Assembly: GCA_019057385.1 (NCBI GenBank)
Contig: JAHQJS010000007.1
Coordinates: 779,685 to 843,684 of the forward strand
Length of the DNA stretch: 64,000 bases
From: Candidatus Borrarchaeum weybense
GTDB taxonomy: Archaea > Asgardarchaeota > Sifarchaeia > Borrarchaeales > Borrarchaeaceae
Direction: 5' to 3'
The translations under genes and the position numbers were made by a program. This document shows, piece by piece, positions 10,544 through 42,996 of the stretch (positions within the stretch are counted from its first letter, which is position 1; each line of letters begins with the position of its first letter). Below the pieces are notes generated by a model. That model was not told the DNA's origin. It did no database searches and saw only the letters and a program-made list of their open reading frames with translations.

Positions 10544-11398
10544 TCAGTCTTTTAAATGTTCAATGACATAATCTAGTATTAGTTCTGGAATTTCAACGAA
10601 AGTTGTTTCCATCAATCCTTTAAATTCTACTGTATGGTTGATCTCATTGACAACTAATCCTTCTTTATCTTCCAATAGATCAACGCCAAGAATTCCGCCT
10701 CCAACAACTTTCGCAGCCTTTAAACTCAATTCTTTAATCTCTGGAGTAATTTCGCAAATCTTTGCTGTGCCACCTCTCGCAATATTTGTCCGCCAGTCGC
10801 CACCATTTGCTTTTCTATACATAGCAGCAACCACATCATCTCCGATAACAAAAGCCCTGATATCTCTTTTTGAGGGAACCTTTTCCTGAATATAATGAAT
10901 TTTATGAAGTGGTCCTAACATTTCTTTATGCTCTATAACTGATGTTGCTACGATTTCATCGTTAATCAAAGAAACGAGACGCCCCCAAGAGCCTACTAAA
11001 GGCTTAATAACAGCAGGATAACCTACATCATTCAAGGATTCAAGAGCAGAATCTTCTGCGAATGACACCAAAGTTTTTGGAGTTGGGATATTTGCTTTTG
11101 TTAACGCTAAAGTTGTCAAGAGTTTATTACCACAGGTTTGTGCTGTTTCAAAGGAATTGATGACATGTAATCCTTTGTTTTCAAGGATTGCTGATAGATA
11201 TAACCCTCTAAAATAACTTACGCTTCTTTGGAGTAAAACATCATATTCCTGTAAATCCGAATTACAATCGGTTGCCGTTAGAGAGAGCCTTTTGGCATCA
11301 ATCAAGTTCAAATCTATTTTTTTCTTCGCTGCAGCCTTTACAAGTTGCTTTTCATTCCAGCTAATTCTATCATATATTAATCCAATTTTCAGTTTCAA
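10544..11398 (-). CDS. argX: LysX/ArgX-family ATP-grasp LysW ligase, ArgX-like
   Basis: KPLVGSWGRLV, RDIR, WRTNIARGG, NEINHTVEFKGL. EFKG and WR.N(I/V) resemble glutamate-specific ArgX more than the EFKN/WITNT of LysX (recalled signatures). Preceded by an Arg-rich leader. Confidence 0.78.
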   Translation of the reverse strand: MKLKIGLIYDRISWNEKQLVKAAAKKKIDLNLIDAKRLSLTATDCNSDLQEYDVLLQRSVSYFRGLYLSAILENKGLHVINSFETAQTCGNKLLTTLALTKANIPTPKTLVSFAEDSALESLNDVGYPAVIKPLVGSWGRLVSLINDEIVATSVIEHKEMLGPLHKIHYIQEKVPSKRDIRAFVIGDDVVAAMYRKANGGDWRTNIARGGTAKICEITPEIKELSLKAAKVVGGGILGVDLLEDKEGLVVNEINHTVEFKGLMETTFVEIPELILDYVIEHLKD

Positions 11399-11625
11399 AA
11401 CCCCCTTTAGAGGTATTAAATCAAAAAACTTCCAAGAGGGTCGTTAATAGGTGAAAGAACGAATTTTAGAACAACTACAGAGCCCACATGATTTGACTCT
11501 ATAAGATTTATCTAAAACAAGTCTTGGCTTACACGAGTTGAAACCAAGTTTTCAACTTTAGCCTATTAACGACGATTTTCCAATGCAAATTTTTTTCATC
11601 GTCGTCGTCGTCGTCGTCGGATCCC
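11399..11625 (-). promoter_or_regulatory. Putative attenuator RNA with alternative pairings between the leader ORF and argX
   Basis: mRNA GACGACGAU (last Arg codons) pairs with AUCGUCGUU (11568-11576). GUCGUUAAUAGG (11562-11573) pairs perfectly (12 bp) with CCUAUUAACGAC (11440-11451). GACCCUCUU (11434-11442) can pair with AAGGGGGUU before the argX start. Internal hairpin AGUUGAAA-ACUUGG-UUUCAACU; U6 tract near 11423-11428. Confidence 0.7.
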
Positions 11626-11691
11626 CACATCTAAAACAAGATATTCGTTTTCAAAAACAGAGTTTCCCATAAAAACTTCATCATAATCCAT
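11596..11691 (-). CDS. Putative arginine leader peptide MDYDEVFMGNSVFENEYLVLDVGIRRRRRRR
   Basis: ATG at 11691 with SD GAGGTG 7 nt upstream; seven consecutive CGA codons immediately before TGA; ~200 nt upstream of the argX-like gene on the same strand. Confidence 0.8.
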   Translation of the reverse strand: MDYDEVFMGNSVFENEYLVLDVGIRRRRRRR

Positions 11692-11848
11692 ATAATCCAC
11701 CTCTAGATCCGACTTTTTATTTTGTTGCACATTGCTCTTATGGTTTTTAAGATTTTTGTTTTTGTATATTTAGTGTGAAGTTCAATACAGCAAAAAAATG
11801 AAAAAAATCAAGATTTGGATTGAGTCATATCAAAAAGTGAAGAAAAAG

Positions 11849-41265: not shown

Positions 41266-41724
41266 ATGTCCCTTGAAGTAGAGGAAGATGAGGACGAATT
41301 CAGAGTGAATTACAATAACAATGTGATGCATTTTCCCAAGCATATATATTATACAGAACAAGATTTGTGGATGAGAGTAGGGGAGGTTAGCGGAATTGCA
41401 ACAGTTGGGCTAACTGACTATTCTTTATTATTACTTAGTGAAATTACTTCTTTAGAAATTAAAACAGATCCTGATACTGTTGTTTCGCCCATGGAAGAGA
41501 TCGGTTTTATAAAATCAAATAAAACTGAATTGAAAATATTTCCACCTGTTTCAGGAAAAATAATTGCCATAAATAGCAGGCTTAAAGATCAACCAAATGT
41601 AGGACGAGACAATTATGAGAGAGGATGGCTGTTCAAAATAAGTCCAAGTGAACTAGATTCGGAACTTCGTGATTTGTGCATTAATGCGAAATACTATGTT
41701 AAAGTCTTGCAAGAACGTTTGTAA
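41266..41724 (+). CDS. Glycine cleavage H-like lipoyl-carrier protein (divergent)
   Basis: YYTEQDLW, TVGLTDY, IKSNK (lipoyl-Lys position), PVSGKI..IN, YERGWLFKI; the stop codon comes from the IS right end. Confidence 0.8.
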   Translation: MSLEVEEDEDEFRVNYNNNVMHFPKHIYYTEQDLWMRVGEVSGIATVGLTDYSLLLLSEITSLEIKTDPDTVVSPMEEIGFIKSNKTELKIFPPVSGKIIAINSRLKDQPNVGRDNYERGWLFKISPSELDSELRDLCINAKYYVKVLQERL

Positions 41725-42996
41725 ACTACCTCACGTTAAAGCTGTGAGGCTTTTAGCTGTACTTAGTTTCAGTCCCCTTCTGTGCAGAAGAGTTTCAACC
41801 TCATCGCACGCTAACACATGGGCGTGTTTACCACAGCCCAGCCCAGTAATCCGCATGTAGCGTCGGGCTATATTTCGTGCACCGTTTAAATCGGAATTCA
41901 GGGTATGACAACAGGTACGACATACAAAGAAGCCACGATGGCGGGAGGTGTTCCGGCTATGACAACGATTGCATTCCTTACTGGTATAGTGGGGGCGAAC
42001 ATAGACTACCCTGACGCCTTTCAGGGTCGCTTTGTACTCCAAAAAGCGTTGCAGTTCCCGGAAGGCCCATTTATGTACCCACCTGTTATATTTAGCTGTC
42101 TTCCTGATGTAGGTCAGTTCCTCCATCACCAGCACGTCGCCTTCGGACAGTTTCTCCACAATTCGCTTGGAGATGTTGTGGTTGACCCAGGTCATAAACC
42201 GTTTCCACGCGCCACTCACGCGTTGTAGTTTGCGTTTCGCGGCACGTGTGCCTTTAGACTGGAGTTCCGCCACCAAGCGCTCCCAGCGGATCCGTTGCTG
42301 TTTGACACTACCGAAGAACTCGGCGTCACTGGTTACTGCCAGCGTATTGACTCCTAAATCGACACCCAGTATTTTGCAGTGGTTGGTAGCTGTTGGCTGG
42401 AGGGTGGTCTCTTTGGAAAAGGTAAAGCAGAAGAAAAACCGCCCTTTGTAGTCCTTGATCAGGGTGCTCTCGCCCAGTTTCCAGGCCAGATAGGGCTCAA
42501 ATACTTCCGGAATCACTACTTGGAATCTGACACGCCCCTTAAGAGTTGACAATGAGAGACACGTCCAGTCTTTGGATACAGAGGCACAGCGCGGGAAATT
42601 ATACCTGATCGCCAGTTCTGGGGAGACTTCTGGTTTGGATCGCGCCCGTTTGACCATTTCAACCGCCTGAGTAATGGCATTGATCACCAGTTGCGCCTGT
42701 AGACCGAAACGCGCTTTCACCTCATATTAACAGCGTGGTTGCAATGCTGCCTTAGAGGTAATCTGATGTTGCCAGGCGACTTCAATGCAAAATTGGACCG
42801 CCTGCGCATAGACCCGCATGGTGTCATTCAGGACTTCAGAACCCTCAGCCAGTTTAACTTTGGCGGTCACCACCACTTTCATGAGAGAATATTATGAGCG
42901 TAACATTATTTAAAGGCAGAGAGACCCTGCTATAACTGAAACAGTGCCTCAATTCCTCCCCACCCTGAAGGATTGGTGCTTCCTTGAGGCGGAACC
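41721..42996 (-). mobile_element. IS200/IS605-family (tnpB only) element 2
   Basis: Left-end hairpin 3' of TTCAC; right end AAGCCTCACAGCTTTAACGTGAGGTAGTTTAC; higher GC than the host. Confidence 0.88.
41731..42882 (-). pseudogene. tnpB: tnpB with an in-frame TAA at codon 52 (42727-42729)
   Basis: MKVVVTAKVKL...LQPRC*YEVKARFG...; GVDLG, VMEEL, PHYTSKECNRC, SDLNGA otherwise intact. Confidence 0.9.

Follow-up and report, generated by a model that had tools for sequence, protein, structure and literature searches.

We analyzed a 64,000-nt stretch (the window) of contig JAHQJS010000007.1 from the uncultured archaeon Candidatus Borrarchaeum weybense, in which a short open reading frame (ORF) that ends in a run of arginine codons lies upstream of an argX-like gene for a LysX-family ATP-grasp ligase. 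Coordinates are those of the window, and all features of the locus are on its minus strand. The leader ORF (11596..11691) consists of 31 codons and a TGA stop: 24 Arg-free sense codons are followed by seven consecutive CGA codons (11599..11619) and immediately by the stop (11598-11596). Its ATG (11691) stands 5-6 nt behind a GAGGTG Shine-Dalgarno (SD) motif (11698..11703), a 6-7 nt match to the 3′ end of the genome's own 16S rRNA, GGATCACCTCCT. The ligase gene (10544..11398) begins about 200 nt downstream, the distance from the leader stop being 197 nt to a TTG at 11398 and 203 nt to a conserved CTG at 11392, its likely start. Its product passes the NCBIfam model LysX_arch (TIGR02144) with 322.5 bits (cut-off 275.6) and contains the Pfam domains RimK (PF08443) and LysX_preATP_grasp (PF22626). 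ArgX is the entry step of LysW-carrier-mediated ornithine and arginine synthesis. An earlier reading of the window (the original prediction) had described the leader ORF with its SD, its (CGA)7 run and no other Arg codon, together with a LysX/ArgX ligase gene about 200 nt away on the same strand, and had proposed that they form an arginine-sensing attenuator; the anatomy is exactly as it described.

The source genome (G000) comprises 4.18 Mb in eight contigs, with the window on contig C7, and has a contamination rating of 7%. A genome-wide scan for SD-led intergenic ORFs of at most 60 codons in which the same residue occurs four or more times in a row returned 17 matches, and the only Arg run among them is that of the leader ORF. 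Perfect trinucleotide repeats of at least five units number 16 in the genome, two of them in the CGA/GAC class. The view of CGA as a special or rare codon is not supported: it accounts for 18% of the genome's Arg codons, second after AGA, and this usage likewise gives no support to the link with eukaryote-type stalling on CGA-CGA that the original prediction had drawn. The other CGA/GAC-class repeat, (GAC)12, encodes poly-Asp in a small acidic protein, within a group of small SD-led ORFs (G000:C4:1118204-1128697) whose products have a short basic N-terminus followed by acidic repeats rich in W, D, and E (e.g., ending EDW).

Using the ligase as query against genomes and metagenomes, we found ten further loci (labeled L002, L050, L052, L053, L066, L069, L076, etc.), whose proteins are 87-99% identical. 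Beyond these ten orthologs the next-best proteins are only ~55% identical, which indicates that this ligase paralog is restricted to a narrow clade, and all ten relatives belong to that one clade. Third codon positions of the gene are 64-99% identical between pairs of loci. One relative, G004, is the near-identical metagenome-assembled genome of the Asgard archaeon 'Candidatus Borrarchaeum yapensis'. The upstream neighbor gene differs among loci, being an Fe-dependent alcohol dehydrogenase (Fe-ADH) in some and DUF2461 in others, and despite this change a promoter-like block, the leader ORF, the leader RNA behind it, and the ligase gene remain linked.

Conservation of the leader ORF

All ten variants keep an invariant GAGGTG, an ATG 5-6 nt further on, an open frame, a pure CGA run, and an immediate stop. 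The ORF is 28-31 codons long among the variants, and the run has five, six, or seven units in relatives, uninterrupted and always in the Arg frame. As the stop directly after it, two variants have TAA and most have TGA. An in-frame deletion of 6 nt has removed two codons from the ORF of L053, and L076 likewise keeps the leader SD and ORF. In the nine variants tested there are no internal stops in the leader frame, so that the single in-frame stop is the terminal one; nearly all other sense frames are interrupted. None of the ten relatives has an interrupted run or has lost the frame or start, so that the original prediction survives the comparison of ORF and Arg frame by which it had asked to be judged.

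The amino acid sequence ahead of the run is, by comparison, free to change. Variable columns among the 24 N-terminal codons number 8, 12, and 10 at codon positions 1, 2, and 3, and relative to the consensus we count 32 nonsynonymous and eight synonymous codon differences. An unconstrained peptide is what is expected if only the translation of the Arg codons matters, and the pattern would be the signature of a leader peptide whose act of translation counts and whose product does not. It is extremely unlikely that the ORF encodes a functional micro-protein acting in trans, for example one with a poly-Arg tail that binds the acidic LysW carrier (tail EDWGE) or nucleic acid. Its translation signals are good and it sits beside the gene of a LysW-dependent enzyme, but the N-terminal residues show no amino acid constraint, net charge and length vary, and no family or homolog was found beyond this locus. 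We also rejected the ORF product as a LysW-like carrier and ATP-grasp substrate, as it has neither zinc-ribbon cysteines nor an acidic C-terminus. A poly-Asp frame across the same repeat (a 33-amino-acid ORF, 11630-11529) was rejected as well: its ATG is absent in L052, and the frame is not kept because relatives have 2-4 nt more or less behind the run.

The repeat might instead be a neutral trinucleotide microsatellite that happens to lie in an open frame of an AT-rich spacer, with the surrounding conservation reflecting promoter or operator DNA of argX. Several observations fit this. Repeat number varies between close strains, metagenome contigs break at the repeat, a triplet repeat never shifts the frame, a single CGA-to-TGA change creates a stop (so that a stop after the run is partly automatic), and a 30-codon open frame has a chance of roughly 1 in 10 at this composition. 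Yet the run is uninterrupted in ten lineages despite a mean divergence of 26% at synonymous sites of the gene, neither the SD nor the ATG varies, and the stop is TAA in two lineages. So few repeats of this kind exist in the genome, and the CGA run precedes a probable gene of the matching pathway; moreover, 200 nt of near-invariant sequence with a folding z-score of -6.7 (see below) are atypical of operator DNA. We therefore regard a neutral repeat as very unlikely.

Contigs from four metagenomes break at the repeat; none spans the entire stretch, and one has a 3-base deletion in the run. Two short metagenome contigs (runs X5 and X10; window 11556-11621) carry the piece from the CGA run to AUCGUCGUUAAUAGG. 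Their flanks do not match the window but look like divergent versions of the leader end and of a hairpin, and judging from these two contigs the leader element probably has further, more remote copies. L052 and L069 differ at 12 of 72 positions within the N-terminal part of the leader ORF (L052:1951-2022 vs. L069:2123-2194), while the rest of their leaders is identical and their ligase genes are 99.6% identical. Recombination, diversifying change, or the chimeric assembly of a contig could account for this local hypervariability.

In the G004 lineage a repeated mobile element of ~310 nt, resembling a miniature inverted-repeat transposable element and without a long ORF, has inserted exactly at the leader SD (L050:1919-2237; about 880-1200 in L002). 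Its apparent target duplication, ATGAGGT, regenerated the SD, so that the leader ORF survives the insertion, with five CGA codons. The element carries its own TATA-like sequence, ATATTTAAAAG, ~75 nt upstream of the leader ATG. It has eight matches of 80-89% identity in G000, three near full length and five partial (45-155 nt), on contigs C4, C8, C7, and C6, one of them at window 41721-41872.

The promoter-like block (11741..11760) consists of an A-rich stretch resembling a B recognition element and the TATA-like CTTAAAAA. It is nearly invariant and marks the 5′ edge of the conserved unit, sequence further upstream differing among relatives. Its role is suggested by its position only, which would place the transcription start near 11718-11722. 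A second promoter-like sequence, ATTTAATA (11414-11421), was rejected as the main promoter since it is unconserved, relatives having GAATGAGTA and GATTGAATA in its place.

Probable start and specificity of the ligase

The ligase gene probably starts at the non-canonical conserved CTG. Several relatives lack the TTG that precedes it by two codons (window 11390-11398 compared with L052, L069, L053, and L066), and an earlier start is excluded because an in-frame TAG lies just upstream of the CTG in L052 and L069. The SD-to-CTG spacing of 8 nt equals the SD-to-start spacing at argG, and the argX SD, GGGGGU, is a wobble match to the 16S 3′ end. Products proposed by gene callers for the orthologs range from 253 to 313 residues.

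Five residues distinguish LysX (F-I-T-N-S), ArgX (I-Y-V-G-F), and bifunctional enzymes (Y-I-T-N-A) (PMC12998189). Mapped through an alignment to Thermus LysX, the signature of the window ligase is F-M-I-G-L, ArgX-like at positions 3-5. A second LysX-family gene, 56% identical to it, lies on contig C8 in a cluster with lysM, two lysW genes, lysY (argC-like), lysZ, lysJ, and lysK; this cluster paralog has the signature F-I-T-N-T, close to the LysX type. The best PDB matches of the window ligase are TtLysX (222 bits) and StArgX from Sulfurisphaera tokodaii (3VPB; 197 bits), and the paralog scores 155 bits against StArgX. A quick tree places the window clade, with a long branch, beside the genome's own cluster LysX, which suggests a lineage-specific duplication and an independent origin of this ligase. 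The two tandem lysW-like genes follow lysM (L072:6300-6915, on G000:C8); the product of the first has the canonical EDWGE end but falls below 1e-5 against the NCBIfam LysW models at the coordinates used. The two carriers might pair with the two ligases.

The genome also encodes argF, argG, and homocitrate synthase (over its cut-off); ArgJ was not found in it, ArgA-type synthases not having been searched separately. The simplest reading is that one LysW pathway makes both lysine and ornithine, in which the cluster LysX would load aminoadipate and the solitary window ligase glutamate. The codon run would then match the pathway, because the ligase is ArgX-like, its cluster paralog LysX-like, and no ArgJ was found, and this match counts in favor of an attenuator. 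No comparable leader was found before argG, argF, lysW, lysM, or the homocitrate synthase gene of this genome.

A conserved and structured leader RNA

Comparison of 36 pairs of loci gives an identity of 92% for the 203-nt spacer that separates the stop of the leader ORF from the start of the ligase gene. Within the ligase gene the figure is 74% for third codon positions and 95% for first and second ones. The spacer is thus far better conserved than the third positions of the gene beside it, a sign that the leader RNA is strongly selected.

Most of the spacer is predicted to fold into a structured domain of 143 nt (11434..11576), closed by a 12-bp helix, P1. Its minimum free energy (MFE) is -44.8 kcal/mol, against -23.1 ± 3.25 kcal/mol for shuffled sequences (z = -6.68), and the mean column identity is 95%, unpaired stretches included. 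The consensus fold is a three-way structure made of P1, an 8-bp hairpin with a variable loop (11535-11556), and a long imperfect hairpin. Only one of its 42 pairs shows a compensatory change, and nearly all pairs never vary, so that covariation neither supports nor contradicts the fold. An Rfam scan of the locus and its G004 counterpart, with E-values up to 1, returned no family. A covariance model of the domain, run against 151 Asgard genomes, matched solely the argX-leader locus in G000 and G004; the reach of this model is short because it was built from near-identical sequences.

A further predicted pairing embraces the leader ORF. The original prediction had noticed that an octamer just upstream of the leader SD, GTCGGATC (11713-11706), is complementary to GATCCGAC (11623-11616) at the start of the Arg run, and the complement is exact. 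In RNA terms this 5′ arm, GUCGGAUC (11706..11713), and the run start, GAUCCGAC (11616-11623), form a 9-bp helix in both MFE and centroid folds, with -9.8 kcal/mol. The octamer pairing is present in every relative and invariant, the G004 lineage being represented by L050 (L002 starts downstream of it), where the 310-nt mobile element separates the two arms. Since the pairing never varies, covariation can neither support nor reject it.

Such a stable domain brings up the possibility that the leader is a regulatory RNA alone, in which the domain binds a ligand, a protein, or tRNA and so controls the masking of the argX SD. The CGA run would then be a mere pairing partner of AUCGUCGUU downstream (see below) and of the 5′ arm, with a reading frame that is tolerated and unused. 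The exceptional stability, a conservation that extends to unpaired stretches and is far above what an attenuator spacer needs, the placement of both ends of the CGA run in predicted helices, and the unconstrained peptide all speak for this. Against it, SD spacing, ATG, frame, in-frame indel, and immediate stop are kept in ten variants and survive even the mobile-element insertion in G004, and the helices need only ~12 of the run's 15-21 nt. The domain also lacks an Rfam match, and no additional copy of it turned up in this genome or among 150 others of Asgard archaea. On balance we think this explanation improbable.

The two ideas could also be combined in a two-input device, in which the Arg-codon ORF and an aptamer-like 143-nt three-way domain jointly set the masking of the SD. 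The second signal, which would stabilize or open the 12-bp helix, could be a metabolite (arginine, ornithine, or another), uncharged tRNA-Arg, or a regulatory protein. We hold this to be improbable as well; if true, an Asgard archaeon would possess a natural riboswitch-like RNA of the arginine pathway or a tRNA sensor of the T-box kind.

Overlapping complementary segments and predicted masking of the argX SD

Four segments of the leader are mutually complementary in the order of a classical attenuator. Segment 1, GACGACGAU (11598..11606), comprises the end of the CGA run and the first base of the stop. Segment 2, AUCGUCGUUAAUAGG (11562..11576), contains a 5′ part, AUCGUCGUU, that is a 9-bp complement of segment 1 (Watson-Crick and GU pairs), and GUCGUUAAUAGG, the 5′ strand of P1. 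Segment 3 (11434..11451), which is invariant, contains the 3′ strand of P1, CCUAUUAACGAC, overlapping with GACCCUCUU, the two having GAC in common. Segment 4, AAAGGGGGUU, lies in the region of the argX SD (11399..11414), which reads ACCUCU-AAA-GGGGGUU and has the SD GGGGG at 11401-11405 beside a local anti-SD-like partner. The three possible helices are 1:2 (GACGACGAU:AUCGUCGUU; 9 bp, -10.9 kcal/mol), 2:3 or P1 (GUCGUUAAUAGG:CCUAUUAACGAC; a perfect 12 bp, -13.2 kcal/mol), and 3:4 (GACCCUCUU:AAAGGGGGUU; at least 9 bp, -10.8 kcal/mol, with ~12 pairs in the consensus fold).

These helices overlap, so that 1:2, 2:3, and 3:4 follow one another in attenuator order, and the segments are invariant with variable loops at their flanks. 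Segment 2 does not vary, whereas the 21-24 nt between the leader stop and segment 2 do. Within the loop of the 3:4 hairpin lies a U6 tract (11423..11428; T6-T7 in all relatives), and the 10 nt that follow it vary among relatives, the TATA-like ATTTAATA being the version in the window. Both variable stretches fit loops. When the spacer was shuffled 2000 times with its dinucleotides preserved, a Watson-Crick helix of 12 bp was reached in 10 cases and a 9-bp complement to the run in 70.

Folding of the whole leader places two arrangements at nearly the same energy. The unconstrained fold (-86.0 kcal/mol) has a long helix that masks the SD and a shortened closing helix; the fold with the full 12-bp helix has -85.9 kcal/mol, so that forcing this helix costs 0.1 kcal/mol. 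When the CGA run is made inaccessible, in imitation of a stalled ribosome, the MFE structure flips to the fold with the full 12-bp helix, in which a weak local hairpin alone (ACCUCU:GGGGGU) covers the argX SD. L076 has ACAUCU here, a change that weakens the local SD hairpin and leaves the distal 3:4 pairing unaffected.

We propose on this basis that the leader is a ribosome-mediated arginine sensor, a leader-peptide attenuator that controls argX with a translational output, and we consider this reading probable, though with only modest confidence. The transcript would start ~30 nt upstream of the leader ATG, and the ORF would be translated from its strong SD. With charged tRNA-Arg plentiful, the ribosome would pass the five to seven CGA codons and leave at the adjacent stop, whereupon the run end GACGACGAU would pair with AUCGUCGUU and GACCCUCUU would be freed to pair with AAAGGGGGUU, masking the argX SD and turning argX off. 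With tRNA-Arg scarce, the ribosome would stall on the run and cover segment 1. AUCGUCGUU would then complete the 12-bp helix GUCGUUAAUAGG:CCUAUUAACGAC, which takes three pairs from the masking helix and leaves the weaker SD hairpin, so that argX would be on.

Several observations weigh against this proposal. In none of the folding states is the argX SD predicted to be free (probability of being unpaired 0.01-0.05), so that the 'on' state would amount to a weaker mask rather than an accessible site. The 12-bp helix exceeds 1:2 in stability, and the 'off' state therefore requires a kinetic, co-transcriptional argument. Chance would produce the 1:2 complementarity itself in 3.5% of cases, a modest improbability, and covariation is almost absent, the predicted helices being drawn from thermodynamics and the pattern of conservation. 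The ligase signature is LysX-like at position 1 and has at position 2 a Met that belongs to neither type, leaving three of five positions ArgX-like; the supposition of the original prediction that the ligase is not lysine-specific thus finds support in those three residues and in the LysX-type paralog of the lysW cluster, and is weakened by the first. Finally, the original prediction would have comparable leaders looked for upstream of other LysX-family genes, and we found none in 40 related genomes, where the matches are out-of-frame readings of what is, to judge from their position, probably lysW.

A bacterial-type terminator, a GC-rich stem with a U run directly behind it, is absent: the U6 tract lies 11 nt past the 12-bp helix and in the 3:4 loop. 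For this reason we class the locus as working like an attenuator and not as a member of the transcription-termination type. Taken together, the interpretation given in the original prediction is partly supported.

Transcription could nevertheless be the output of the same Arg-run sensor, with the leader ribosome deciding on termination at the U6-U7 tract (11423-11428), either through an altered fold of the upstream RNA or through access of aCPSF1/FttA to naked RNA, as in the Rho-dependent polarity at tnaC and speF orf34. Archaeal RNA polymerase terminates at oligo-T tracts and requires no hairpin, and the T6-T7 run is kept in all relatives amid a variable 3′ neighborhood. A purely translational switch also looks weak when the SD is masked in all folds. 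In Salmonella, moreover, translation of orf34 counteracts Rho termination (PMC6386406). On the other hand, the tract is not right behind a stem, for the reasons of spacing just given, and to our knowledge structure-dependent termination is not established for archaea. A transcriptional output is in our view a credible, if unlikely, variant.

Other observations on the leader and the genome

L050:2440-2510 (SMTZ1_10024035) lacks 38 nt that include the U6 tract, ACCUCU, the GGGGG SD, and the TTG, the gap joining CCCTCTT straight to AACTGAAAATTGG. This may be an assembly error, or else a real variant that lacks the expression platform. The leader contains UGAUGA, and we considered a C/D-box small RNA; it was rejected as there is no suitably spaced D box and the box is broken in L052. 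With default settings, ARAGORN finds 32-33 tRNA genes in the genome, in which Arg-CCT is the sole tRNA-Arg, and relaxed settings give hundreds of false positives. Six intron-free tRNA genes of bacterial appearance form a tight cluster at G000:C1:19435-19896. Contig C1 has a higher GC content and may not be part of the archaeon's genome.

Discussion

Ribosome-mediated attenuation is a textbook mechanism of bacteria and needs transcription, translation, and RNA folding to be coupled. Its known cases include hisL, with seven His codons, trpL, thrL, leuL, and pheL, and the leader of the Thermus thermophilus lysine cluster. Like the hisL-type leaders, the Borrarchaeum leader is a short SD-led ORF before a biosynthetic gene, with a 3′ end that is a run of codons for the probable end product of the pathway; it shares with them the overlapping 1:2, 2:3, and 3:4 segments and a peptide that is otherwise unconstrained. 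It differs in its Asgard archaeal host and in its amino acid, arginine being usually under ArgR control in bacteria. There is no stem directly before the U run, and the 3:4 helix here would mask an SD. The 2:3 helix encloses a folded insert of 110 nt, and one gene would be controlled rather than an operon.

The proposed output has its closest parallels in ermC, cat, and cmlA: the SD of the next gene is sequestered by a hairpin, which is remodeled when a ribosome stalls within a short leader ORF. In those systems the stall is caused by an antibiotic together with a specific nascent peptide and not by a shortage of charged tRNA. The fungal arginine attenuator peptide (AAP), encoded upstream of arg-2/CPA1, acts as a conserved peptide by arresting ribosomes at its own stop codon under high arginine. 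It resembles the present case as an upstream ORF before an arginine-pathway gene with arginine-specific control (here proposed). The AAP, however, has no run of Arg codons. In Borrarchaeum the peptide shows no conservation, and the prediction runs the other way: the gene would be turned on by stalling when arginine is low.

The original prediction had held the mechanism to be essentially undocumented in archaea, and our full-text literature searches agree with it in that they found no report of an archaeal leader-peptide attenuator; the uORF4u paper contains just a general statement that upstream ORFs act in archaea. The use of Arg codons has a bacterial counterpart in speF orf34 of Salmonella, where at low arginine the ribosome pauses at consecutive Arg codons and thereby selects between alternative mRNA structures (PMC6386406). 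That system too is an upstream ORF with consecutive Arg codons, and it too unmasks a sequestered ribosome-binding site (PMC6386406). It differs in having two Arg codons inside a conserved peptide domain and no terminal run, in an output through RNase G sensitivity and Rho termination, in its target, ornithine decarboxylase, and in its bacterial host (PMC6386406). By analogy, then, the Borrarchaeum leader is closest to the hisL type in anatomy, to erm/cat in its proposed output, and to speF orf34 in its use of Arg codons.

The ligases, for their part, resemble the ArgX/LysX pair of Sulfolobus: there are two per genome, the one with the LysX signature being located with lysW and the shared enzymes (PMC12998189), and the other being solitary with the signature of a smaller hydrophobic pocket (PMC12998189; PDB 3VPB/3VPC, 3VPD, 1UC8). 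Unlike Sulfolobus ArgX, with I-Y-V-G-F, the window ligase has the motif F-M-I-G-L and groups on its long branch near the cluster LysX of its own genome. The locus supports an independent ArgX/LysX split in Borrarchaeia, which is relevant to the question of how the syntheses of lysine and arginine parted from a common carrier-protein pathway.

If the proposed sensor is real, it would extend attenuation to the Asgard archaea, the lineage nearest to eukaryotes, and to arginine, an amino acid whose synthesis is mostly repressor-controlled in bacteria. The cassette of ~330 nt (11390-11722) would then be a compact system in which to study the interplay of archaeal ribosomes, mRNA structure, and possibly termination factors.

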